A stretch of 64,000 bases of DNA from an uncultured Planctomycetota bacterium (lineage in GTDB: Bacteria > Planctomycetota > Planctomycetia > Isosphaerales > Isosphaeraceae): NCBI GenBank assembly GCA_963845755.1, contig CAWJTV010000037.1, positions 1-64,000 on the forward strand. Direction: 5' to 3'. How positions within the stretch are numbered: the stretch's first letter is position 1; the number at the start of each line of letters is the position of its first letter. Shown piece after piece: positions 2,629 through 64,000 of the stretch. The notes beneath the pieces were generated by a model. That model saw only the letters and a program-made list of their open reading frames with translations, was not told the origin of the DNA and did no database searches. The position numbers and the translations under genes were made by a program.

Positions 2629-3713
2629 ATGTGGTCGTATGTCGGGGCTGTGTTGGCCTCAATCTTAATCCTGTTCGGGTTCGTAGCTATCCTCTTGATC
2701 TGGTTCGCTTGGCCAGCCATATCGAGCCTCTATTCCTCGCATAGGACTAGACTCGCCATCACCGTCGTAGAACTTCTTTCGGCTCTACTGGCTTTCGGAG
2801 CGAAGATGGTCGCAGAAGGTGACGGACATCTTGTGGCGAACATCGCGGCCTGCGAGGGCCTCTTCAGCTTGTTCTTGTGGAAACTCGTGGCGTGGTGTGG
2901 AGACCGCAAACTGGAAGAGGCTATTAGAATCGACGTCAAGGACAGAAACAAACTTCTTCGCAGATTATTTTAGGATTAAGTTATTAGTAGCACTATCCCA
3001 CCTTGTTCATCACAAGAAGCAACGCGTTTGGATGGAGATCGAGAGACGAAAGCAGGACAGGAGGATAGATCGAATTGGCTCTGCTAGAGCCGGCCTGAAT
3101 CCCACGAGCAGCTGCTGACGATCATTCAGCAGCTCGGGGCTTTCTTGCGTGAGCAGTTGCCACAAAACGAACAGAGCGTTGAACAAAACTTTCGGATAGG
3201 ATTTTATGTCGAAAAGAATGGTGTCATGACTCCCGTGGCCTCGTGGGACACAAACAAGAAACGGTTGCATTTCTTACATCCTATAAACAAACACCAAATC
3301 ATTTCCGAGTTGATTGCTTCGATCAACCATCTCACGTGGTTTGCTGTGTCAGGGAAAGGAGAATGCTGATCGTGGAGGATTGCGAGAAGAACTCGTATCT
3401 TTCTTTCATCCCGACCAGAAGAACTACTTGAAATCCCTCGCGGCGTTTCCGATCATTGACTATGGAAATGGTTCTGATCCGCGCGTCCGCCGCGATAGTA
3501 ATCGATACTGACGTAACCGGGTACTTCCGGCGCGACGACGAGCCTTCGATCAAAGTTTACCTGGAACATTTTGCGGTTCGCCTCGACCTCGAAACGTCAA
3601 TCCGAAATCTCCTGCAACCACCAGAAAACCTCGGCAGGAGCCGACCAATGAACAGAGACGAGTCCCGAAAAAAAAGGGAACGGAGGAGCGAGCCAAGGCA
3701 TTCGACCTCCTGA
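2629..3713 (+). CDS. Low-GC membrane protein with N-terminal TM helices and C-terminal GAF-like domain (several frameshifts)
   Basis: 2-3 hydrophobic helices in 2629-2900; downstream fragments stitch to NFRIGFYV..RMLIVEDCEK..FFHPDQKNYLKSLAAFPI..AIVIDTDVTGYF..YLEHFAVRLDLE, a GAF-like pattern. Confidence 0.5.
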
Positions 3714-3823
3714 CCAAGTCGTACAAGAAGGCGGTCGAGAGGCATGTGAAGAGCTTTGAAGAAGACCTCAAGAAGAAGTCGTCGTCAAACCTTGAAGGCC
3801 CTCGTAATCACTCCGGTAAGTAG
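3648..3823 (+). CDS. Small basic hypothetical protein (frameshift in A8 run)
   Basis: AGGAG RBS then MNRDESRKK/GTEERAKAFDLLTKSYKKAVERHVKSFEEDLKKK..GK*. Confidence 0.35.
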
Positions 3824-4023
3824 ATCCTCACCAGACGTTGCATGTTTCTTTCTGGCATCGTCGCACGCCTGGGTCGATGTGTCGAACATTAGTGCGCCTA
3901 GTCTTCGCGAGAGGGCGTGCACACAACCACGCAAACGAACTTGCCCGGTACATCAGCGTGCCGGGCCTAAACCCGCGCACGGGAGTTGTGGCCTGTGCAG
4001 GAGCTTTCATTGGGACATCAGCC

Positions 4024-4188
4024 ATGGGCAAGAAGAAGGACCCGTCAACGACTCCGAGCGTTGCAAGCAAGGCTGGCAAGGACCTTGGAGATCCGAAGAC
4101 TCCCGAGAAGGACAGAGCGCCGATCGCTTCAGCCTTGCGCCAGAGGGTGAAGCCGGAAGATGACAAGAAGGGCAAAGGCAAGAAGTAG
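4024..4188 (+). CDS. Small Lys-rich hypothetical protein (54 aa)
   Basis: MGKKKDPSTTPSVASKAGKDLGDPKTPEKDRAPIASALRQR..; clean codon pattern; stop abuts the convergent gene. Confidence 0.6.
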   Translation: MGKKKDPSTTPSVASKAGKDLGDPKTPEKDRAPIASALRQRVKPEDDKKGKGKK

Positions 4189-4491
4189 TCAGCGGATCCG
4201 ACGCAATCGCGTGATAGCCACGAAGGGATCGTCATCTCTCCGTTGCATGCAACTTCCCGCGGTCCTCGTCCCCGATGTGTGACGCGATGACCTTCGCGTC
4301 TTTCCATCATGGATGAGCCACCCAACCGACCGGCATCTCGTAGGTGTCGTGGTGGGCTCGTCCATGTGCCATTTTGGTTCGTAGCAAGAATCAGCCCACT
4401 CGATCAAGACGAGCGGGTAAGTCCGGCCGCTAGAGTCGCGGGAATGTAGGTGAGACCGACTCACACCTTGACGTGTGCTCTTGCGTTTCAC
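4189..4491 (-). CDS. Small phage-type hypothetical protein (frameshift near 4300)
   Basis: YPLVLIEWADS..W..CRSVGWLIHDG..IP pattern I associate with small phage proteins; directly follows terL stop. Confidence 0.55.
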   Translation of the reverse strand: MKRKSTRQGVSRSHLHSRDSSGRTYPLVLIEWADSCYEPKWHMDEPTTTPTRCRSVGWLIHDGKTRRSSRHTSGTRTAGSCMQRRDDDPFVAITRLRRIR

Positions 4492-5906
4492 TTATAGTAG
4501 CCTCCGGATTGGAACCTGTCGCAGGGCCGGTTGCTCGGCGGCGCCCCTCTGGGAATCGACTGCGGATGCCGTATCGCAGCGCGTCCATGCTGTCCTCGTG
4601 AGGCGATTGATCAGCGGCGGGCTGGTTGAGCCACTCCCCTCCCCGTTGGGCTCTGCGGTAATTCTGGAAGGCGGCTTTGAGATCCTGGCAACGGGGGTGG
4701 ATCAGGAGGTTACCCTGATCGAGCAAAACCTCGATCTGGTCAAGACCGTCCACGACAAGATGGTGGGGACTCCTGGCCAGGAACCGCGATCCGAACACCC
4801 GCTCAAACTCGGCATAGGCTGCTATGCCAATCCCTGTGTTGGCGGTCGCGGCGGGATCGATCCGGACCACGTCCACGCGCCCCTTGCACGGCAGCTCCTC
4901 ACCGCGCCGCTTGATCGCCTTGGCGTTCGCCTCCGAGAACAAACCCTTTGCCACGTAATTGCCGAACACCGTACAGCCCACTGATGGGGGGCGATCTGGC
5001 GGCATTGCCACCAAACAGCCGCGGTAGTCTGACTCGTGCCGGCATCGATAGCCAGCATCACAGACAAAGCGGGGTCATACTCGGCTCGCTCCGTCACATG
5101 CTTCGCGACGTCGAAGCGTGCAAACCAAGCCCCCTCAGATACCTCCAGGATTTCGGCGTAAATCTCTTGCTGGCCAAGCCGGGTCCCCTCGAATCCGGCA
5201 ATCACTTGCTCGAAGAACGTGGCGCCAGGTTGGCGCGGTTCTCATGCGTCGAGCCGCGGACCATCGTCGTCGTCGGGTCCGCGATCAGGGCCTTGATCAG
5301 CGCCGTCGGCTTGGGAGTCGTGGTCACGCAGATTCGCGGTCGATCACCAAGGCGGAGCCCAAAAAGGAGCATATCCCAAGCGGCGGGATAGCGGAACGCA
5401 CAAAGCTCATCGACCCAGGCATGCGAGTGCTGGGGGCCTCTCAAACGCTCTGGTTCGTCGGCGGAATAGGTTGTCGCGATCGATCCGTTGGGCCACGTCA
5501 ACCGCCGCTTGCTCGGTTCGTACCGCGGTCGGAACCACGGCGGGCTGATCGCCGTCAGACCCGACTCGCCTTCGATCATCACATCCCGGACATCGGCCGC
5601 TGTCGGCGCCACGAGTGCAATCCGCCGGCCCGGTCCCGATTCTGCGATCGATCGCACCCATTCGGCGCCGGTCCGGGTCTTCCCCCAACCCCTTCCGGCC
5701 AGAGCCAGGAATGTCCGCCAGTGGCCTGCCGGCGGTCGTTGCGAGGGCCGGGCGCGCGGATGCTCCCGGCATTCACCCGCGGGGAGACCGCACGGGCACG
5801 AGTCGGCGAACCAGTCGAACCGCGCGGCGTCACCCTCATTCGGCTCGGGGTCCGCCGATCCGAGGAGTGCCTCAGCTCTTGCCAGGCGTGTTGCCAGCGC
5901 GATCAC
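4492..5906 (-). CDS. terL: Phage terminase large subunit (Terminase_6-like), split by about 3 frameshifts
   Basis: Walker A AGRGWGKTRTGAEW, LRGPQH..AWVDE (Walker B), VTTTPKP, GTRLGQQEIYAEIL, nuclease AIDAG and HEDSMDALRY across ORFs 5202..5984, 4822..5205, 4430..5014. Confidence 0.93.
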
Positions 5907-6221
5907 GAAGTCGGTCCTCCACAACGGCCATGCGGTCCGCCAGGTCATCAGCCTCTCTCGCCTTGACGGCGGTCGCGACGACATCCAGGTTGATCCGGCT
6001 GGCTTGCAGGATAACCGTCGATGCCGCTGTGACCTCCCTGGGAGATGAGTCCGTATCCTCGATCACTTCTCTCAGCCGCTCGATCACGACCGGTCGCATA
6101 TCCTTCGGGATCGGCCATGTTTCGCGAAGGGCACGGGCGAACAACCGGACATCGTGTATCCGGCGGCGGCGGTCCGCAGGCTCTCCCCCCGACCCCCCAG
6201 GGGGGCTTGATGATCGGCCAT
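5872..6221 (-). CDS. Small helical protein upstream of terL, candidate terminase small subunit
   Basis: RALRETWPIPKDMRPVVIERL..SPREVTAAS..DLADRMAVVEDRL; overlaps terL start; frameshift in GC-rich 5' part; TerS call is positional only. Confidence 0.55.
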
Positions 6222-6223
6222 GG

Positions 6224-6838
6224 TCAACACCCCGAAAAAGAGAACCCGAACGCAGCCACTCTCGACGCTCGGATCGCTTGGAGCGATCGCCTCATCGTTG
6301 CCCCGGTCGTGACCAGATCGTCCACGATGAGCACCAGCAGCGGCGGCGGTTCCCGCAGCATCGCGACGAAGGGGGCCTGTCGCAAGGCGAAGTGCGTTCC
6401 GTGCCAGCGTTTCTCATCGGTCCTGACGAGCACCTCGGCGAACGGCACGCCGAGGGCGTCCGCCACGGCGGAGCCGAGGGCCTCGGCGGCATGCGGTCCC
6501 GAAGCCGAGGCGCCTTGAGGCGGAATGGTCAGGACCATGCCGGGAGGCAGAACCGCGGACCACTCCCGAATCAAGTCGGCGACAGACTCGGCGAACCCGA
6601 CCAGCGTCGCCGGGTCGAACGGGACGCTCCGCTTCCACGCCTTGATGTCTCGGCGGTCCGACTCCCGTCGCGTCGCACTCCAGACCCCCAGGCCGGCGCG
6701 GCGCTGGTGGCTCGGGAGCGATCGGCCGGGCGGTTCCGGTTCGCGGCGGAATCGGGGCGGGATCGCAATGGACGCCAATGGTCGGACTCCCTCGGTCGGC
6801 CGGATCGCAGCCGATACTCTCGAATACTTCCATTCCAT
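6224..6838 (-). CDS. ComF-like type I phosphoribosyltransferase-domain protein
   Basis: PRPP-binding motif VLIVDDLVTTGATM, plus LTIPPQG..AEALGSAVADALGVPF. Confidence 0.85.
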   Translation of the reverse strand: MEWKYSRVSAAIRPTEGVRPLASIAIPPRFRREPEPPGRSLPSHQRRAGLGVWSATRRESDRRDIKAWKRSVPFDPATLVGFAESVADLIREWSAVLPPGMVLTIPPQGASASGPHAAEALGSAVADALGVPFAEVLVRTDEKRWHGTHFALRQAPFVAMLREPPPLLVLIVDDLVTTGATMRRSLQAIRASRVAAFGFSFSGC

Positions 6839-6854
6839 CCTACGCGGATTATCA

Positions 6855-6965
6855 GAACTGTCAAGACTGACATTTCAGTTTAGACTGAAATAACTGAAGA
6901 CGCTGGTCAGATCGCCAAGGTCTTGACTGAGCAAAAGGGCGTCGAATTCGCCTTCGGTCAAGATC
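6855..6965. promoter_or_regulatory. Cluster of inverted repeats upstream of the PRTase-terS-terL operon
   Basis: TGTCA-N4-TGACA (6859-6872), ATTTCAGT-N4-ACTGAAAT (6872-6891), TCTTGACTGA..TCGGTCAAGA hairpin (6921-6963). Confidence 0.4.
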
Positions 6966-7282
6966 AGCGGCGGCCCGGGCCGGCGGCGCGACACTGGGAG
7001 GAATCGCACCGTCCGATCCACGTTGGGCCAGCGGTCCGCAACGCGCGTGGCCACCCGTCCACTTACTAGGCCACAGGGCGGCGGGACCTGCCGGGTCCAA
7101 GAGGCGTACGGCGTATCAGGAAATCCCAGAGCTTGCCCAGTGAGTGCACTCAGTCACCTTGCGGCCTTGACTAGCAACCGAATGGATGCACGCACAGCAT
7201 GGGTGAACCTCTGGGCACACACGGCTCTCAGCCTTATAATAGACGTTCAACTCCCGGCCCCATCCGTCATAATGAGGATGTT

Positions 7283-48481: not shown

Positions 48482-48608
48482 TTCCACTCCGGAGCGAGGC
48501 GGACCACGAGATCCCTTCGCAGAACACGAAGCGTACTCGAAGCCCCTGGATGCATGCAAAATGCGCTTCGGTGTGAGGCCAAATCGTCGTAAGTTGTTGC
48601 AGCAAAAG

Positions 48609-48681
48609 CGCACCCGGTAGGATTCGAACCTACAACCTTCGGATTCGAAGTCCGCGACTCTATCCGTTGAGCTACGGGCGC
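48609..48681 (-). tRNA. tRNA-Arg (anticodon UCG), CCA not encoded
   Basis: GCGCCCG acceptor, GCTC-AACGGATA-GAGT D arm, CGGA-CTTCGAA-TCCG anticodon arm, GTAGG-TTCGAAT-CCTAC T arm. Confidence 0.95.
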
Positions 48682-51914: not shown

Positions 51915-54900
51915 ATGGCGGGCGAGCAACTGCTCTGGACCGGGCCGTACGGGGCCTCGCTGCGCGATTACGCTCTGGCGGGTGCATCGAGCGATCCGAC
52001 GAGTCTGTGGCTGGTCCCCTCGCGGTTCGCGCGGATCAGGTCCGGCGCGAACTGGCGATGCGATCGAACCGGGCCATGTCGAGTACGCGGGTCTGGTGCC
52101 GTTCCGACCTGTGGCGGTGCCTTCGCGACGAGCTCAACGACGGAGATGGGCCGGCGTTCCTGTCTGAGAGCTCGGCCGGCGCGGTCTTCGGCGAGGCGAT
52201 TCGCCAGGCGCGTCAGGCGGGCGACCTCGCGGCGATCGCCTCGGTCATCGATTGGCCCGGATACCGCCGCCGGCTCCACGAGCGGCTGGCGGACTGGACG
52301 ATTCTCGAACGCCCGATAGGTTCCGCGGTCCCGAAAGAGTCGGTCACCGCCGCGGAGTGGGCGGTCTTCGTGCGCTACCGTGAGTTGCTCCGAAAACTGG
52401 GAGTGGAGGATGCAACGGGTTTCGCCGTCTGGGCTTCCCGGCGGCTGCTTCAGCGACCTCCAGCGTCGCTAAGGGCCTTCGATCAGGTCACGTTCCTCGA
52501 CTGGGAGGCTCCCGCAACGGCCGATTGGCGGATCCTTGATCATGCCTTGAGGCGGGCACAATCCGTCCGGGTCACATTGGCGTACGAGGACGATCCGCTA
52601 TCGATCTCCCACTACGCAGCCGTGGCACCGGTCCGCGAACGGCTCCGTGAACTCGGCTTTGACGAGGTGCCGGTCCGACCGGAGTTCTGGAGGCCGGCCG
52701 GTCTCCGGGAGCTGGAGCAAGCCCTCTTTCGCCAGGGCGAGTTGAGCGGCGCACTGGCCCCAGTGGCCTCGACTCAGGGCTTGAGAATTCGCGGTGTCCC
52801 TCAGGGCGAGGCCGCCGGCCGGTTGCTCGCCCGGGAGATCCGCTCGCACATCGACTCCGGGACAGTTCCCGAAGAGATTCTGGTCCTGTTCCCGGAGTGG
52901 TGTGAACAGGCAGACCTCGCGATGGAGATCGCGCGGGATTGGGGACTCCCGGTCCACGCCGTGCCGAGCCGGCCACTCGGTGCGGACCCGGCCGTCGCCG
53001 CGCTCTTGCTTGCGATTGACCTGCCGGTCGAGGACTGGGTGACCGATCGTCTGATAAGTCTCCTACGCAACGGCCAGGTCCGCCTGGACTGGCCAGGTGC
53101 GGACCTTCTCTCCAGGGCCGCCGCGGCCTCGATCGTCAAGACGTCCTCGGTCTTCCGGGGGCGCGAGCCGCTCTTGCGCTGGCTCGATCGCACGCTCTCC
53201 ACCGAGAAAGCCCAGACGGTGAAGGCCGAGCGTGCCCGGATGGCGCGGGACCTCCTGGCGAACCTATTCGCGCTCCTGGCCCCCCTCGACAAAGCACGGC
53301 CCTTCTCCGAGCAGCTCGAACAAATCGTCCGCATCGGGGAGATCCTCCATCTCGGTGAGTTTGCCCGCTCGGGCCTGGACCAGCTTAGGGACGCCATGGA
53401 GGATCAGGCCGGTGTGCTGGAACGCCTCGGCCGGGGGGATGCGCCGTGGAGCTGGTCGGCGTTCGTCCGCGAGGTCGAGTCGATCGCTCTGGGCCTGAAG
53501 GTACCGGGCCCGCCGCCACGGCCCGGCTCGGTCCGGATGGCCGCGGTTGGCGAGGCCCAGGGGGCTCGGTCTCAATTCGTCATCCTGGCCGGCCTCTCTG
53601 AGGGGACATTCCCGGCGCACGACGCCGTCGAGCCGTTTCTGTCGCTGCGACCTGGCGCGGTTCCCGATGACGTCAGCCGGCACGTGTTCTCGCGCGAGAT
53701 GCTCCGCTTCTCCAGGGTACTCGGTTCGGCGGAGTCGGGCGTCGTATTGATCTATCCGACGACCGACGTGAAGGGGCAGGACCTCCTTCGTGCGGGGTTC
53801 CTTGACGAGTTGCTGGAGCGGCTGACCCCCGAAGCAACCGCGGCATGCCACCACCCGATTCGGCGCGTGGACCCTGCCCTGATCGACTCGCCGGGCCTGG
53901 CGGGCTCGCCGGGCGATCGTCGCGTCCGTGCCGTGGCAATGGCTCGAGCCCAGGGTGACCTTGCACTCCTCTCCGCGTTGGCCGGACAGGCGACTCATCG
54001 GAGAGTGCTGGAGGGGACAGCGTTCGCGCCTCCAGGTCCTGGCGCACCGCCTTCGCGGCACCTCCTTCGGCGAATACGACGGGTTGCTCAAGGACGGTGA
54101 CGCCGTTCTCAACATCGCCGAAGCCTTCCCTCCCGATTACAGCTTCAGCGCCAGCCAGCTCGAGACCTACATCGCCTGTCCGTTTCAGTTCTTCTGCAAG
54201 TATGTACTCAACCTTGAGCCGACCGAACGGCGCGACGAGATCGGCGAAGATTACACCGAGCGCGGCAGCCGGATCCATAACATCCTCCAGCAACTGGAGG
54301 AGATGAAGCAACAGATCCGCGACCAGTCGCACGAGGAATTGGCGCGGATTGCGGTCGGTGCCGAGCTGAATGTGGCGCTGGCCGACGCCTCCGAGGTTGA
54401 TCTCGGCCTGGCGGAGATCGAGCGTCGCCGGCTGATCCAGACCATCGAGCGTTACGTGGTCCAGTTGCAAGGCTATGAGAACGACCCGCAAGCGCGGGCG
54501 ATCCCGCACCTCTTCGAGGTGGAGTTTGGAAAGGAGGATTCTCAGAGGCCACACCTGGAGATCGGCAGGGGCCAACGGATGGTCCGGCTCCAGGGGAAGA
54601 TCGATCGAATCGACCTGGTCGAGTCGCCGGAGGGCCGCGGGTTCCGCGTCATCGACTACAAGAGTGGGGCAGGTCCTTCGACCACCGACGTCAGCAAGGC
54701 ACGGCTGCTCCAGCTCCCGCTGTATGCCATGGCTGTCGAGCGAATCATCCTGGCGGAACAGGCCCTCTCCCTCCGAGATGTCGGCTACTGGGCGTTGCGG
54801 AAGGACGGATACAAGCCGATCGCGTTCCAGGAGTGGGAGGCCGTGCAGGAAGCCCTGGAATCGTACGTCGCCGAGCTGGTCGATCGGCTCCGGCAAGGGA

Positions 54901-55073
54901 TCTTCGTGGTGGATTCGCAGGTCGATGGATGCGAGAGTTTCTGCGATTATCGCGCGATCTGCCGGGTGCGCCAGGCACGGCTGGCGTCCAAGGTGCACGA
55001 TCGGGCCATTCCACCGGAGTTGGCAGTCGAGCGGGCCAGTCGGAAACGCCGAGGATCAGGGGATGAGCTATGA
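51915..55073 (+). CDS. addB: AddB/RexB-like subunit with C-terminal Fe-S PD-(D/E)xK nuclease (frameshifts near 52035 and 54025)
   Basis: Inactive helicase-like body; FSASQLETYIACPFQFF, GKIDRID, VIDYKSG, QLPLYA, CESFCDYRAIC. Confidence 0.88.
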
Positions 55074-58000
55074 GCGCCTCCGATTCCGCTCCGGGGTTCT
55101 CACTCACGGACCAGCAATGCCGGGCGCTTCAGGTGCCCGATGCCAGCGTGGCGTTGAGCGCCGGAGCCGGTTGCGGCAAGACGTTGGTTTTGACCGAGCG
55201 GTTCTTGGCGGCGCTCGACGATACCGGCGGGCGGCCGTTGCGGTCGCTGGTCGCACTGACGTTCACCGAGAAGGCGGCGCGGGAGTTACGACAACGGATC
55301 CGCGCCCGATGCCGGGCCCGGTTGGAGGCGGGTGAGGACCCGGCCCGGTGGTGGGCGATTCTTCGCGGTCTAGACGCAGCGCCGATCGGGACGTTCCACG
55401 AGTTTTGTGCACGACTGCTCCGCCGTCACGCGCTCCAGGTCGGGATCGACCCCGAGTTCGCGATCCTCGACGAGTCCGTCGCCGGTTCGCTCCGCGACGA
55501 GGCGGTCAGGGCGGCGCTCCGCCGTCTGCTGGCCGCGCGCGATCCGGACCTGATCGATCTGGGGACCGACTATGGGCTTCACCAGGTCCGCGAGACGCTC
55601 GGACGACTGACGGCTTCGCGCGGTGCAGTCGATCTCGAGGAGTGGAGCCGGCTCAGCCCCGAGGCGATCGTCGCTCACTGGCGTGGCCTGGTCGCGGACC
55701 GGCTCTGGCCCGCCGTCCGGGATCGGGCCGGCCCGAGCGTACGTCGATGCCTCCAGACGATCGCGTCGCTCGATTCGGATCACGCCAAGATCCGCGAGCG
55801 CCGCGCCGCGTTACCCGAGGCCCTGGCCGTTCTGGTGCCCGGAGCACCCCCCTGCTCCGCCGCGCAGCTCGACGCGCTGGTCGAGCTGCTGAAAGTAATC
55901 AATCTCCCACGTAAGGCCGCCTGGCCCTCGGACGCCGACTACGAGGCGGCCAAGCAGGCTTTCTCGGCGCTACGCGATCAGGTCAAAGATCAGATCAAGC
56001 CCGCGCTGGAATGGGACGAGCCGAGCGTGCTCGGTGCGGCCGAACAGAGCCTGCGGTTCGCCCGGCTGGCCCTGACGGTTCGTCGTGAGCATGAGCAGCT
56101 CAAGAGGCGCCGGCGGGGTCTGGATTTCGACGACCTCATGGTCATGGCCCGAGACCTCCTGCGCAACCATCCCGAGGTGGTGACGCCCGACGCGAACGTG
56201 CCGGGCGCCACGACGATCGAGTTCGTGCTCGTCAACGAGTTTCAGGATACCGATGCGATTCAGGCCGAGATCCTCAGGCTCTTGAGCGGCTCCGCATTCC
56301 TGTCCGGCCGGTTGTTCGTCGTCGGTGACGTCAAGCAGTCGATCTACCGATTCCGCGGGGCCGAGCCGTCGATATTCGCGCAGTGGCGGGCCGAATTCCT
56401 CGAACGCGGCCGGCTTCGCTTGACCGAGAACTTCCGGAGCGTTCCGGGTGTCATCCACTTCGTCAATGCGGCTCTTCGGCGACGGCTTTGGCGATGTCGA
56501 GTCGGGCGACAACGTCGGAAGTCCCGGCGGCCATCGGCTCGTGCCGATCCGCTCCGAAGACATCGGTATACCGACCGTCGAGTTTCTGTGGCCGGCCGCC
56601 GCCGAGGGCGAATCGGATCCAAAGCGGTCGAACCCGCGAGCGGCGAGTGATCGAGGCCCGGTGCCTGGCTCGTCGGCTGCGGGAGCGGCTCGCCGCGGGC
56701 TGGCCTATCCTCGAGCGAACCACCAACCTGACCCGGCCGGCTCACCCGGGCGACATCGCGCGATTGTTCCGCGCCATGACCGATCTCTGGCCGTTTGAAT
56801 CGGCCCTCGCCGACGAGGGATTCGACTACCACACGATTGGCGGCTCGGCCTTCTACGCGCAACAGGAAGTTCACGACGTGATCAACCTGTTGTCGGTGGT
56901 GGAGGACCCGTTCGATGAGATCGCGATGGCCGGGGCGCTCCGAAGCCCGTTCTTCGGCGTCAGCGACGAGGGGCTGTTCTGGCTGGCGACGACGTTTCAG
57001 GACGGCGGGCTGGCGGCCGGCCTTCATCGACTCGACGAGATCGCCAAGCTATCGCCGCTGGACCGCCGCCGCGCGGTTCGGGCCCTGGAGCTGCTGTCTC
57101 GCTGGCGGTCGATGAAGGACCACGTGCCGATGGCGCGTCTGGTCGCCCAGATGCTGGATGAGTCGGGGTTCGAGGCCGCCGTGGTTTGTGAGTTCCTCGG
57201 CGAACGCAAGCTCGCCAACACGCGAAAGATCGTTCGGCTGGCGCACGACTTCGACCGTCAGGGCGGCTTCACGCTGGCGGAGTTCGTGGCGCGGCTGCGG
57301 GCCGACCTGGAGAACGAGCCGCGCGAGGAGCAGGCGGCGACGACCGACGAGTCAGGTGCCAGCGTCCGGTTGATGTCGATCCATCAGGCCAAGGGGCTGG
57401 AGTTTCCGATCGTGGTCTTGCCCGACCTGGCGCGGGCGTCGAGCAATCGGAGTCCTTTGGTGGCGTGCCATCCGGACCTCGGACTGGTCGTGCGCCCGCC
57501 GCAATCGTCGCCGAGCGCGGGCGAGTCGCCGGGGGATTCCGCGCCGGAGAGCTTCGCCTGGCGGGCGTACCTAACGCTCGAGCGTGCGGACGACGAACAG
57601 GAGTCGTTGCGCCTCTTCTATGTGGCGGCCACACGGGCGCGCAACGCGCTGATCCTCTCGGCCGGATTGGGTCCGGACGAGCCGGTGAAGACGACATCCG
57701 TCGCGATGCGTCTCCTCGATGACCGGTTCGACCGGCGGACCGGCCTGTACCGGCTCGCGTCGGTGGAGCCGGGTCCCTTGCAGGCGGTGCACGTCTCGAT
57801 CATGAGCCCTCCCGTCCCGCGCGGCGAGCGCGCCTCGACGTTGACGCGTGCCGCGATTACGACGATTGCGGAGACGATCGGGTCCGTCGCGCCGACCGGA
57901 TCGGATGAGCCCGTGCGAGCCGTCCCGCCTCCGCAATACCTGGACCTCGACCCTGCGTTGGGCCTCTCTCCCCGCACCGCCCGGCTCGACAGCCTGATCC

Positions 58001-58542
58001 GCGCGATCCTGCGCGACCCTCGATGGCTCCGCGGCGAATCGATCGAGTCCATCGCGGCCCGTACCGCAGTACGGCAGGTCCCCGCCGCGAATCCGAGCCT
58101 GGTCCGCGAGGCGATCCGGCGGATCGATCCTCTCTGGGAATCTCCTGCCTTTCAAGCCTTGCGCACCGCCGATGCCGGCTCCGTCCGGTATAACTTCGCC
58201 TTCACGATGGCGTATCCACTCGAGGACACTCCAACGGCGTCAACTGTTATCCACGGAAGCTGCGACATTCTCTTCCGCGATCCCGAGGGGCAGTGGCAGG
58301 TGATCATCCTCGCGGATGCGGGAGCGTGCCCTGCGAGCCAGAGACTCCGGCTCCAGGTATCCGCTCGGGCTGTCACAGGCTCTGGGTATTCACCCGTCCG
58401 CCAGGGCTGGATCGTCAGGCATCGTTCTGACGGCGCTCTCGTCGAGTGGCGCGAAACCGAATTCGATGATTCCAAGATCGCCGTTGCACTTCAGGATCAC
58501 GTCGGGAGGAACGCGGAAGGAGAGGCGCTCGGACTTTCGTAG
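55070..58542 (+). CDS. addA: AddA/RexA-like UvrD-family helicase (frameshift(s) near 56470-56640)
   Basis: AGAGCGKT, TFTEKAAREL, V[N]EFQDT, GDVKQSIYRFRGA, ENFRS, SIHQAKGLEF, RLFYVAATRAR. Confidence 0.92.
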
Positions 58543-58805
58543 AATAAGTCTTCACGTTTCCGCGTCCACGCGCAGGCGGTGGAATCGGCGACGAAGGAGG
58601 ACTGATCGATGATGGAGTCTCCTTCGCTGAAGTCGGGTTGGCCGACATGAGTGTGCCGAGGGCAGGTGCCGAACCGTTCATCCAATCTGTTCGAAACCGT
58701 TCACCCCGGTGAACTGCGACTGCCCTGAAAACAGGTGCTAGATCAGGTGCCAAGCATGAGGAGGACCGTTGTGGACTTTTTTCGACACGCGCAATCTTCC
58801 ACAGG

Positions 58806-58884
58806 TTATAAAAATTAGTTATTAATTTTTTGATTTTATTACTGATGATCCAATCAATTATTATATACAAACATCAATATTTTC
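58806..58884. other. Extremely AT-rich tract
   Basis: About 12 G/C in 79 nt by hand count, in otherwise GC-rich sequence. Confidence 0.85.
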
Positions 58885-58960
58885 AATCCACCCTGACGTT
58901 CATTGATGTCTTGCCGGACCGGGGGTTCGCAACCGTGGTCGGAGTGCCTGCTAGTGGCCC

Positions 58961-59384
58961 TGTCCTGCTCCAGACGGAATGGGAAGAACAGCCCACTCTA
59001 ATAAGCCACAATTTCGAGCGGAGGCTCTCCCATGGCCAAGAAGACTCGCAAGCGATTCAACGCTCGGGAGAAGGTTGCCATCCTGCGGCTCCATCTCATC
59101 GAACACGACGCCATCTTGGATCTGTGTGACCAGAACGGCATCCACCCCACGATGTTCTAACGCTGGAAGAAGGAGTTCTTCGAGAACGGCGCCGCCGACC
59201 TCGAGCCCCGCTCCCGACGCCCCACCGACTCCAAGGACCAGCGAATTGAGCTCCTGGAGCAGAAGCTCCAGCACAAGCACGAGGTCCTCTCAGAACTTAT
59301 GGACGAACATATCAAATTAAAAAAAGAGCTTGGGGAACTCTGAATCGAGCATCGGTTCCCCAGGCCACCCGAGATGCGGTTGTC
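58961..59384 (+). mobile_element. Truncated IS3-family element (left end, orfA and first codons of orfB)
   Basis: TG-starting putative IRL; orfA; A7G slippery site followed by a short orfB start that breaks off next to the ggt stop. Confidence 0.75.
59032..59343 (+). pseudogene. IS3-type transposase OrfA with premature stop
   Basis: MAKKTRKRFNAREKVAILRLHL..LCDQNGIHPTMF*RWKKEFFENG..IELLEQKL..IKLKKELGEL*; TAA at 59158-59160. Confidence 0.85.
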
Positions 59385-59394
59385 CGCTTAAGAA

Positions 59395-61223: not shown

Positions 61224-61463
61224 GGCATGACTCCAGGTCGGCGGGTGTGTAATGGTTGACGGAGTGAATGGCGTTGAGCGGGCCGTTTTGATTCGCACGA
61301 GTATGGGCGCGTCGCGACGGTCGGTCAAGAAACGCCAGGTACTTTCGCAATCGCTTGTGGTTCATCCGTCCACCCTATCGGCTGCCCGAGCGCACATAGG
61401 TCTGATCGACCGAAGTCAACTGGGATCAATCGACTTCGGTGTCGTCGGATCCAAGCGAGATAG

Positions 61464-61503
61464 ATCGGGGCGACTGGACGCCGCTAGAACTTCTTTTCGC
61501 CGG
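61464..61503 (+). repeat. att-like site copy A
   Basis: ATCGGGGCGACTGGACGCCGCTAGAACTTCTTTTCGCCGG; 30/40 ungapped identity to copy B. Confidence 0.75.
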
Positions 61504-61605
61504 CGCCTGAGGGCTCAATCTTCTTCGCCGGGCCGCCCCGCGTACGTTCGAATCCCGTCGCCAGTCGCTTCCGCAACCAGCGGCGGGATTTAAGTTTGTG
61601 AAACA

Positions 61606-61645
61606 GTCGGGGCGACAAGACACCGTGAGAACCTTTTATCGCCGA
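61606..61645 (+). repeat. att-like site copy B
   Basis: GTCGGGGCGACAAGACACCGTGAGAACCTTTTATCGCCGA; reverse complement ends TCTTGTCGCCCCGAC, like a tRNA-Pro 3' end. Confidence 0.75.
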
Positions 61646-61711
61646 TGTCCGGGGTTGGGAAGCCGACCCGCGTCGGCGGCTGGATGACGGAAATCCTGTC
61701 GAGCACGTGGC

Positions 61712-62834
61712 TTAGCGATTCACGATGTCTTTCACCCGCTCGGCCAGCGCCGCTGCGATGGTCCCGCCGCCCGGCGCCATCTTGTTCATCATGTAGGAGA
61801 AGGTCATGCGGCGATCCACGTCGATGATCACCAACGAGCCGCCATAACCGCGCCAGGAACACACCCGGCCTTCCGGGGCAAGGCCATAACCGACGCCCCA
61901 CTTGATCGGGATGCCTATCACGAGGTCGATCCCGTTGAATTGCACCTCGAAGATACGGTCGATCGTCTTGGGCGAGAGCAGCCGGACGCCATCGACCTCG
62001 CCGCCGCAGGCCACCGCCGACCGGAGGCGCCAGCGAACGGGCATTGCCGTGGCCGTTGCCCGCGCCGATGTCGGCGCGCCGCCAGCCTTCAGTCCAGGTC
62101 GTTTCCACGCTCATGGTCGGGTTGGTCATCGTCTTGAATGCCACGTTGCTGGGGTCCGGTTGGATCAGGTCGGCCGGCGCCGCCGGTGCCGGCACCACGT
62201 TGGCGACGCGATGGAGCTCCGACGGTGGCAGCCCGATGTGGAAGTCGGCGCCCAGCGGACCCGCAATGTGCGCGGCAAAGAACTCACCCAGGCGCTGGCC
62301 GGTGATGCACCGGATCACTTCGCCGATCAGGTGGCCGTAGTTCAGCGCGTGGTAGCCCGAGGCTGTCCCGGGTGCCCACCAGGGCGCCTGGGCGGCCAGC
62401 AGGGCGGTCGATTTGTTCGAGTCGTACAGGTCCTCGAGGGTGATCGGCTGGTTCCAGCCCGAGACGCCCGAGGTGTGCGACAGGAGCTGGCGAACCTTGA
62501 TCCCCTCCTTGCCCCAGGCCGCGAACTCGGGCCAGTACTTGGCGACGGTCGGGTCGAGGTCAAGTTCACCGCGATCGATCAGGACCAGCGCGGCGAGCGA
62601 GGTCATGCACTTGCTGGTGGAGAACACGTTGGAGATGGTGCTCTCGGTCCACGGCGCGGCGCGGGCCTCGTCAGCCCAGCCGCCCCACAGGTTGACGACC
62701 ATCTCGCCGTCGATGTTGAGGCGAGCGAGGCACCGAGGTCTTCCCCCGACTCGAGCTTGGAGGCGAATAGCTCGCGCAGAGGGTCGAAGCGGCGCGCTGC
62801 ACGTGCCGCCCAGCGCCGTCGGGTGATCGCTCAT
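61712..62834 (-). CDS. Serine hydrolase / class C beta-lactamase-like esterase (frameshifts near both ends)
   Basis: VNLWGG, FSTSK (SxxK), [20 protein letters not shown]. Confidence 0.92.
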
Positions 62835-62927
62835 GAGGCCTCCATACAGCAATTGCAGTTGAAGCTGACGCCGATGTGGCATGGCCGATTGTCGGTGACC
62901 GTCCTGCTGCCCAACCGGTATTCCAAC

Positions 62928-62967
62928 GACAAGGCGACAAGACGGCTATTGAATTCTTTTTGCGCTC
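62928..62967 (+). repeat. att-like site copy C
   Basis: GACAAGGCGACAAGACGGCTATTGAATTCTTTTTGCGCTC; shares GGCGACAAGAC-N7-GAA-N3-TTT with copy B (22/40). Confidence 0.65.
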
Positions 62968-63043
62968 CTGCGCGAAAATTGACGGTTTCGCTCTTCGTGC
63001 ATTGATTAGCGATCGACGGCTTCAGATGAGATACTTCGTTCGC

Positions 63044-63442
63044 TCATGCCTCGTTCGCTACCGCCGCGCTCCGCTCGGAAACCCGGCGGTTCAACTCTTC
63101 ATTGGCCGGCCGGATCTCGAACACGTTCCCAAACTTCAGCGCGGGGTGTTTCGACATCAGCGAGATGGCGTGGTTCAGGTCGCGTGCTTCCAGCAGCAGA
63201 ATGCCGCCGAGCGATTCCTTGGTTTCCACATACGGACTGTCGGTGACCTGGACCTCGCCATCCTTCATCCTCAACGTGACCGCGTTATGGGCGGAATCGA
63301 GCGCTTCTCCCCCCAGGAAATGCCCACCTCGCCGAAGTACGTCGTCGTAGGCGAAGCAATCCTCCATCATTGTCTGCGCGTCTGTCTGCGGAATCTGAGC
63401 AAACGCCGCCTCGTCGAAGAACCCTAAACAGACGTATTTCAT
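63044..63442 (-). CDS. YciI / DGPF-domain protein
   Basis: [30 protein letters not shown]. Confidence 0.92.
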
Positions 63443-63509
63443 GCGACTCTCCGTTCAAGGACCGCCCTGGTGGATTTGTTCGGCCTTCACGCTGCCAAGC
63501 TCTCAATCA

Positions 63510-63959
63510 TTATTTAAAACGGGCCAGGCCGTAACCGTCATCATCAGCCGAGCGGGCTTCCAGTTCTTTAACTTCCTCCAGCCGCTCGGGGGTGACCAGC
63601 CCGGCAAAGTCCTCCGGTTCAAACAACGGACGAATTTCGATTTCGAAGTCTTCAGTCATCGGGTTCGGGCATTTCTTCACCCAGTCAATCGCTTCTTGTA
63701 GTGAAGTGACCTTCCAGACCGAGAACCCGGCGATGAGTTCCTTCGTCTCAGGGAATGGCCCGTCGGTGACGGTGCAATTTGAGCCGGAGAACCGAACACG
63801 GGCGCCGCGAGAGCTTGGCGTCAGTCCCGTACCATCGAGCAGGATTCCCGCATTGATCAATTCTTCGTTGAACTTTTCCATGGCCGAGAACATTTCGGCG
63901 GACGGCATCTCGCCCGCTTCTGACGACGCTGACGCTTTGCCAATCACCAGGACTTTCAT
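63510..63959 (-). CDS. YciI / DGPF-domain protein
   Basis: FNEELINAG, GLTPSSRGARV, VTDGPFPETKELIAG, EIRPLFE. Confidence 0.93.
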   Translation of the reverse strand: MKVLVIGKASASSEAGEMPSAEMFSAMEKFNEELINAGILLDGTGLTPSSRGARVRFSGSNCTVTDGPFPETKELIAGFSVWKVTSLQEAIDWVKKCPNPMTEDFEIEIRPLFEPEDFAGLVTPERLEEVKELEARSADDDGYGLARFK

Positions 63960-64000
63960 GTCGGAACTCCTGAACTTGGTGGATGGGAATGCGATCGAAG

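Follow-up and report, generated by a model that had tools for sequence, protein, structure and literature searches.

Integrons combine the tyrosine recombinase IntI with an attI site and with attC sites, which are folded single-strand palindromes. Tandem genomic islands with att repeats are described by McMurdie et al. (2011, PMC3146451) for the ssrA islands of Dehalococcoides, which depend on the serine recombinase DsiB and include 15 islands without an integration module; in the same account, the DsiB-type integrase gene overlaps att at its 3' end, and the authors suggest that full function may require the circular form or an adjoining island. The examples of accretion at gene ends given in PMC5704250 involve tyrosine integrases, and the site-specific serine-integrase IMEs presented there disrupt their target genes. 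For the tycheposons and tRNA islands of Prochlorococcus, tyrosine integrases are reported in 910 of 937 cases, together with ~40-nt tRNA repeats and an integrase belonging to each element (bioRxiv 10.1101/2020.12.28.424599).

Here we analyze a 64,000-nucleotide stretch of planctomycete DNA (the window), corresponding to positions 1-64000 of contig C37 in genome G000 (14.3 Mb, 88% complete); throughout, G numbers denote the genomes compared, L numbers site loci with their flanks and C numbers contigs. A sequence-only reading of the window had proposed that three co-oriented repeats are att-like sites delimiting gene-sized units, and that these units form an integron-like array built at a tRNA-Pro end. 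Our verdict is tandem accretion of CIME-like units, not an integron.

The repeats and their genomic setting

The ~40-bp repeats, designated sites A, B and C, begin at 61464, 61606 and 62928; these coordinates were reproduced on reanalysis, as were the identities of 30/40 between A and B and 22/40 between B and C, and the A/C pair likewise shares 22/40 positions. All three translate in a single common register. The proposed motif GGCGAC-NN-GAC-N7-GAA-YYYTT describes B and C and misses A, with two matches genome-wide. As had been noted, A and B are 142 bp apart and enclose an empty unit, and B and C are 1322 bp apart and enclose one gene; the stop codons at 61712 and 63044 lie 67 and 77 bp from the ends of B and C, given earlier as about 70-80 bp (Table 1). 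Extending the contig past 64 kb, which the sequence-only reading had proposed in search of further copies, a tRNA-Pro gene and a large serine recombinase (LSR), revealed a fourth, closing junction (D) at C37:65558 and neither of the two genes, so that the array reads A, empty unit, B, hydrolase unit, C, a 2628-bp unit with three genes (two YciI genes and an ECF sigma factor) and D. The whole of C37 contains neither a tRNA-Pro gene nor a gene matching PF07508. The only tRNA in the window is a tRNA-Arg(TCG) on the minus strand (48608-48681); elsewhere in this genome, a tRNA array of ~36 genes and two smaller tRNA clusters are found at C41:590256-593662 and C20:431840-451106.

Table 1. Features of the array and its surroundings in window coordinates, with putative att elements labelled according to the interpretation adopted here
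Feature	Position	Strand	Description
Gamma-glutamyltranspeptidase (GGT) gene, PF01019	59395..61225	-	Frame-broken
REP-like double palindrome	61399..61465	+	Left arm of site A; another copy after junction D
Site A	61466..61494	+	Putative crossover core CGGGGCGAC and P' half-site of LSR attP; truncated integrase-tail frame begins
Unit A-B, empty, 142 bp	61466..61607	+	P' arm and recurrent hairpin-bearing left arm (~61546-61607)
Site B	61608..61709	+	Putative core, P' half-site and best-kept ~33-codon integrase tail copy (one in-frame stop)
Unit B-C, 1322 bp	61608..62929	.	Serine hydrolase cassette
Serine hydrolase gene, beta-lactamase family (PF00144)	61712..62834	-	Two frame breaks in the assembly
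Site C	62930..62962	+	Putative worn core and P' half-site
Unit C-D, 2628 bp	62930..64000, on to C37:65558	.	Two YciI genes and ECF sigma factor
YciI-domain gene (PF03795)	63044..63442	-	C-D cargo
YciI-domain gene (PF03795)	63510..63959	-	C-D cargo

To score the genome, we built a matrix from 111 sites found in other genomes, excluding any site at least 80% identical to A, B or C. The top three scores in 14.3 Mb belong to B (39.9), A (38.7) and C (32.2), followed by a fourth at 15.9 and by a best score of 12.7 on the reversed genome. A, B and C are thus the sole strong matches in G000, and a genome-wide scatter of the motif, named in the sequence-only reading as an observation that would speak against it, is ruled out by this ranking; one partial tail, a lone fragment, lies at C19:413832. 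Beyond this genome, a degenerate site pattern occurs in 20 of 41 relatives and 54 of 121 genomes of the family, with no control matches in either set, and in 20 of 301 genomes phylum-wide, more than half of which belong to the class of the window, with one control match. A scan of the sequence collection for the site returned at least 125 stretches, 80 of them with flanks, nearly all in Planctomycetota records.

The array is located between addA and a TPR/peptidase gene, an interval occupied by unrelated genes in a genome of the same genus, and the genes that flank it (GGT, AddAB and a peptidase-domain gene) include no integrase. GGT accompanies the array in G012 (94% identity over 3.5 kb), and no site bounds it on the left. 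Junction D consists of a B-type left arm, the core and ~12 bp resembling the T-arm of tRNA-Pro (the B' half), followed by non-tRNA sequence; Rfam gave no match over the array, D included, at E-values up to 1. Frame breaks affect the addB/addA-like genes (52007-58542) as well as the GGT and hydrolase genes, and since related contigs differ by indels of 1-2 bases at the GGT and hydrolase breaks, all of these breaks may be assembly errors rather than marks of pseudogenes; relatives of the hydrolase elsewhere are intact, with 376 aa. At the GGT stop codon, a broken insertion-sequence-like remnant (58960-59385) cuts in, adjoining an AT-rich patch (~58800-58890); it has multi-copy matches of 71-80% in relatives and no Pfam match.

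Attachment-site identity and the integrase tail

Judged from sequence comparison, each repeat is a crossover core followed by the P' half of an attP site, and the peptide shared by the three repeats is the C-terminal tail of an LSR. The earlier proposal of att-like sites can thus be made specific, the sites corresponding to att junctions of a planctomycete LSR that targets tRNA-Pro and whose gene and attP overlap. The SRGDKTAIELF ending that the sequence-only reading had named for such recombinases proved to be real: in 4 of the 80 flanked loci (L051, L069, L092, which is 5'-truncated, and L128, which is frameshifted), the frame of an LSR gene continues across the site into the tail, and the products of L069 (525 aa) and L051 contain the Resolvase, Recombinase and Zn-ribbon domains (PF00239, PF07508 and PF13408). 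The predicted LSR structure matches solved serine integrases (Foldseek E 5e-18). At four loci in three genomes (two in G027, one each in G039 and G028), homologues of ~500 aa overlap the 3' end of tRNA-Pro and terminate four or five codons into the tRNA-Pro antisense; among the tRNA-Pro-overlapping elements checked, three (L203, L204 and L228) carry a gene for a TraD/VirD4-like coupling protein. The best 120 database homologues comprise 107 with a short end, mostly RGD/RDD-x-I, and 13 with other ends, and the tail is found in none of them. From the read-through LSRs, the tRNA-overlapping LSRs and the short-ended homologues taken together, we infer that the integrated gene ends as RGD-x-I-stop inside the tRNA and that the displaced P' arm carries an alternative end.

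Several homologues (P0072, P0094, P0098 and similar proteins) have other C-terminal ends resembling read-through into different tRNA genes, which suggests, at the level of protein ends, that members of this LSR family may retarget to other tRNA genes. At L069:1381-7691, a planctomycete-type tailed LSR and, after it, an AbiEi/AbiEii pair lie at the end of a chromosome contig from an alphaproteobacterium, reflecting either transfer between phyla or a chimeric assembly; this contig was rejected as an excised circle, being an ordinary chromosome piece without terminal overlap. The long open frames that enter the site in L083 and L109 do not encode recombinases.

The ten bases GTCGCCCCGA, likened by the sequence-only reading to the end of a tRNA-Pro, are indeed identical to the 3' end of the G000 tRNA-Pro(CGG), whose gene sits on contig C5. 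A tRNA-Pro gene lies near the site in 9 of the 80 flanked loci, in all nine downstream and on the opposite strand, as predicted, and none is present within the fetched flank (up to 6 kb) of the other 71. Of 29 distinct B' junctions, 14 are complete tRNA-Pro genes and the remaining 15 fragments. The idea that the present array was built at a tRNA-Pro end is not supported: the array closes on a short tRNA-like half-site. Isolated scars also occur elsewhere in G000, comprising an LSR 3' remnant that ends in a B' half (C5:527744, minus strand), a worn B' with a D-type flank (C40:40883) and a worn site (C23:50957).

Half-site geometry was assessed by taking the last GG of the core as the inferred centre. 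Counted from this centre, TGAAC lies at position 16 of the P' half-site and at position 11 of the B' half of tRNA-Pro, which puts the motif 5 bp farther from the centre in attP than it is in attB. The same 5-bp shift is given in PMC3783163 for the zinc-ribbon motif of LSRs (positions 16-24 versus 11-19), and in site A the motif occupies positions 16-24, as described there. Over 160 dereplicated sites, the left 25 nt hold 3.7 bits and the right 21 nt 30.5 bits, a contrast biased by use of the right arm to pick sites and of the left arm to dereplicate them; subject to the same selection bias, the left arm is nearly without information, whereas LSR sites are expected to bear motifs on both half-sites.

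These data bear directly on a reading in which no serine recombinase is involved and the repeats are either scars of tyrosine-integrase islands at tRNA-Pro or a dispersed REP/MITE-like repeat. The tRNA-Pro(CGG) of G000 does have a ~43-nt 3' duplication 2.3 kb away, the usual signature of a tyrosine integrase, a REP-like palindrome abuts both A and D, and the Islander authors knew of no serine integrases that target tRNA genes (PMC4383910). However, identity of the sites with the tRNA extends over only ~10-14 bp, and the remainder belongs, in frame, to the 3' end of the LSR gene itself; LSR genes directly overlap tRNA-Pro ends, and the genome has no strong copy besides the three sites. Contradicted in addition by the in-frame read-through and the 5-bp motif shift, this reading is highly improbable. 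The pairing of a tRNA end fragment with a tyrosine integrase, as sought by Islander, does not occur here, the array containing no integrase gene. The tRNA-Pro(CGG) duplication itself (C5:732789-735173), whose second copy lies downstream of the gene, encloses an FAD monooxygenase gene and a worn third copy near 734960, with no integrase inside. The REP-like palindrome has 28 similar copies in G000, often as co-oriented pairs a few kb apart (C1, C8, C13, C19 and C39).

The tail bears the marks of a coding sequence. Over 161 dereplicated sites, chosen by a model that includes the tail region, the RGD frame is open across codons 10-24 in 93%, versus 62% and 77% for the other forward frames, and beyond the DNA motif pN/pS is 0.50 in frame versus 1.4 and 1.3 out of frame, with stops clustering at codons 28-34. 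AlphaFold predicts two helices for the tail (497-506 and 510-517; pLDDT 71-83), with no contacts returned by the model (pTM 0.46). Complex prediction of the tail against the C-terminal domain gave a weak score of 0.46, against 0.00 for the best control, with runs agreeing on at least 80% of contacts and a partner pLDDT of at least 62; in the benchmark for such scores, 116 of 157 solved pairs passed the mark, as did 2 of 215 mismatched pairs, scores up to 0.60 among passing pairs belong to only 18 solved pairs and both mismatched ones, and two parts of one gene tend to pass. We hypothesize that the tail may have a regulatory role. A protein search with the tail region returned no match, an uninformative result for so short a query.

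Units, candidate landing site and proposed mode of assembly

A total of 84 units between successive junctions were surveyed. Their median length is 1754 bp, with 64 units of at most 3 kb and 5 above 6 kb, sizes that are biased downward because loci were limited to 20 kb and large autonomous elements are under-counted; homologous units were kept separate (six of A-B, three of the hydrolase unit), and genes were predicted with our own simple caller. Only one unit holds a near-full LSR, which is frameshifted, and six hold LSR remnants detectable by tblastn. Among the left arms, 44 are singletons, and the rest make up an LSR-3'-end family and several other recurrent ones.

Some of these features recall a dedicated system of the integron kind, in which purpose-built cassettes would be captured and reshuffled by an LSR resident beside the B' junction, the tail from the neighbouring P' arm activating the enzyme. 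Arrays are polar and reach five sites (G001:C1), G002 holds 21 sites, and the cargo has an integron-style composition, comprising glyoxalase, DinB and RibD-C genes, toxin-antitoxin pairs and defence genes, together with dehydrogenases; LSR-tail fusions upstream of cargo units, the constraint on the tail and its weak predicted docking on the C-terminal domain point the same way. Yet no small-unit array in the loci examined has an intact LSR at its end, the orientation of the first cargo gene is mixed (42 minus and 24 plus, n=66), the same units were never seen in a reshuffled order in these loci, and the tail is absent from all of the best 120 LSR homologues, so that we consider a dedicated system unlikely. 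The 21 pattern matches of G002 (L034-L042) lie in a 5.9-Mb, 99%-complete genome with defence-rich cargo, many of whose contigs break at sites. No cognate LSR, of the family that targets tRNA-Pro, was found in G002, in G360, also 99% complete, or in G000, G001 and G366. The 27 PF07508 matches of G000 were rejected as candidate helpers: the best reaches 111 bits over a partial model, compared with 660-970 bits for cognate enzymes against L069, and none of the 15 C-termini inspected ends in the site.

Comparison with relatives bore out the expectation that units vary and that the breakpoints fall at the core. Over its whole length, the B-C unit shares 87-89% identity with units in G360 and G366, which belong to two other genera, and the units that follow it differ; in L083 it begins exactly at the B core. 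After the arm found left of C, distinct P' arms occur in G000/G001, G008, G360 and G366, amounting to at least four different units. In G367 (L216), which represents the empty state, the left arm of the hydrolase unit runs directly into the core, B' and the flank also found after D, and one soil contig (run X6, depth 4.7, 85% likeness) joins the C core to the B' flank of D. The same B' and flank close the arrays of G001:C1, L112 and G366. Of 13 loci checked for the arm left of C, one is the locus itself, six have the arm (35-39 of 42 positions matching) and six lack it; among the six with the arm, five show the next states just described and G012 has lost the P' arm. We read these states as a single non-tRNA landing site that would be either empty or independently filled with different units. 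A-B copies of 142-143 bp are present in five other genomes. Some units have been fused by deletion away from the core (L083/L224 and L196), and in G001 (L033:11698) unrelated DNA bearing repeats truncates the P' arm of site C within the half-site; ~1 kb beyond the cut lies a group II intron-like gene for a reverse transcriptase.

Several units also move together as blocks, including A-B-hydrolase in five other genomes and GGT-A-B-hydrolase-YciI-ECF in G012 at 89-94% identity, and they speak against a simple unit-by-unit movement. Such blocks, 89-94% identical across genera, are expected if the arrays are passive fossils: full-size autonomous LSR elements would have shrunk by deletion, along the CIME route presented in PMC5704250, the small units would never have been mobile, and the spread of blocks would be due to other mobile DNA or to homologous transfer. 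This account, which we regard as possible, if doubtful, fits the LSR 3' remnants of differing length seen in left arms, a 16-kb unit in which a coupling-protein gene accompanies a frameshifted LSR, the worn state of sites B and C and the several site-rich genomes in which no cognate LSR was found. Speaking against it are the persistence of a near-full LSR in only one of 84 units, the 44 left arms that are singletons without a family, the recurrence of units of the same length and ends in different genera and array positions, the small recurrent arm families that bound differing cargo, and the coding signature retained by the tails of LSR-less units.

The explanation we favour, and consider likely, is that a tRNA-Pro-targeting LSR acting in trans serially inserted three small, recombinase-less units at a tRNA-like site away from any tRNA gene. 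Formally, a circle bearing P-core-P' would recombine with a core-B' junction, and integration would yield two junctions, B-core-P' on the far side and P-core-B' on the near side. Because the left half-site carries almost no sequence information, the near junction would again be usable as attB, and each new circle would enter there, displacing older units outward; the implied order of insertion would be A-B, then the hydrolase unit, then the YciI/ECF unit. The small units would have been served in trans by a passing autonomous element. Internal deletion in conjugative or mobilizable LSR elements is their likely origin, some units retaining LSR 3' remnants, and other units may have arisen by excision at secondary cores. 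No circle junction was observed for any unit among the joints listed in four contig sets of relatives (share of words up to 0.30), a result that is no evidence against circles; a joint in run X1 (2950-7155) that connects two REP-like copies was discounted. Since neither a cognate LSR nor a circle was found, the array is probably orphaned, decaying and dormant.

The layout of an integron-like array, as first proposed, is retained, and its machinery is not: there is no recombinase at the array or among its flanking genes, and the units resemble deletion derivatives of integrative elements. Consistent with accretion, the units of the window keep their att junctions and carry no integrase or transfer genes, 83 of 84 units lack a near-full LSR, and both empty and filled states exist; the array on C37 does not abut the target gene, unlike those of 9 of 80 other loci. 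A broader synthesis, which we regard as rather unlikely, would see here a serine-integrase counterpart of the integron in Planctomycetia. The enzyme would read essentially one half-site, and a reusable landing pad would exist at every core-B' junction, among them a portable ~12-bp tRNA mimic that travels between genera along with cargo blocks. Gene-sized cassettes would circularize and be captured in trans, and excision at secondary cores would generate new ones; the ~33-residue tail, gained only on the circle or beside another cassette, would act as a switch of directionality or activity.

Comparison with known systems

We found no description of such a system in planctomycetes in the open literature; tables from TIGER/Islander or from LSR catalogues may list the integrases. 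The locus contributes an ectopic landing site, seen in matching empty and filled states, and a direct linkage between tail and LSR, and it outlines concretely how large genomes of soil planctomycetes could gain and swap single-gene cargo. A finder of tyrosine-integrase islands with a 2-kb floor, such as Islander as described in PMC4383910, would miss units of this kind, and according to the same source (2014) restoration of a tRNA target, as by the present LSR family, was not known for serine integrases. The idea of McMurdie et al. that the integrase is completed on the circle becomes directly testable, because the tail is conserved and both protein forms occur in nature. A one-sided site whose product remains a target would suit serial gene stacking.

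Like the ssrA islands as presented in PMC3146451, the arrays involve an LSR that targets a structural-RNA gene and whose own gene overlaps att at its 3' end, tandem units separated by att sites and units without an integration module. They differ in that the target is tRNA-Pro or a tRNA-like half-site far from any tRNA, in that units are mostly 1-3 kb, and in that no integration module of six genes, including a second small recombinase, was seen beside the LSR; moreover, the C-terminus of DsiB is reported there as divergent, whereas the tail described here is conserved (pN/pS ~0.5). The array is accordingly distinct from the ssrA islands themselves: its target is tRNA-Pro-like, the tmRNA gene of G000 lies on C31, and no dsiB-type module is present at the array.

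With the accretion of CIMEs and of ICEs and IMEs, as set out in PMC5704250, the array shares the loss of integration and transfer genes, the retention of att sites and entry at the target-end junction, and it differs in that the tRNA is restored by the LSR and in that array growth takes place at ectopic half-sites as well. Domain order and fold agree with those of the LSRs of phages and ICEs (LI/A118, phiC31 and Bxb1), as does the motif spacing given in PMC3783163; in contrast to these, the site is strongly one-sided, within the selection bias noted above, and attR-type junctions appear to be reused. As in the tycheposons, judging from their description in bioRxiv 10.1101/2020.12.28.424599, successive integration would take place at tRNA genes, including tRNA-Pro, older elements would be pushed inward and remnants left behind, but here the enzyme is a serine recombinase and the array units carry no integrase of their own.

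Integrons resemble the present arrays in their polar series of gene-sized units, in their cargo of stress, detoxification and defence functions and in exchange at a repeated site. The arrays, unlike integrons, have neither a recombinase nor a shared promoter at their head and carry cargo in mixed orientation, no IntI being found among the genes that flank the present one, and their sites are double-stranded and LSR-type, explained as LSR gene ends. New here, in comparison with all of these systems, are the gene-sized units, the portable non-tRNA target, the one-sided site and the coding-constrained tail.
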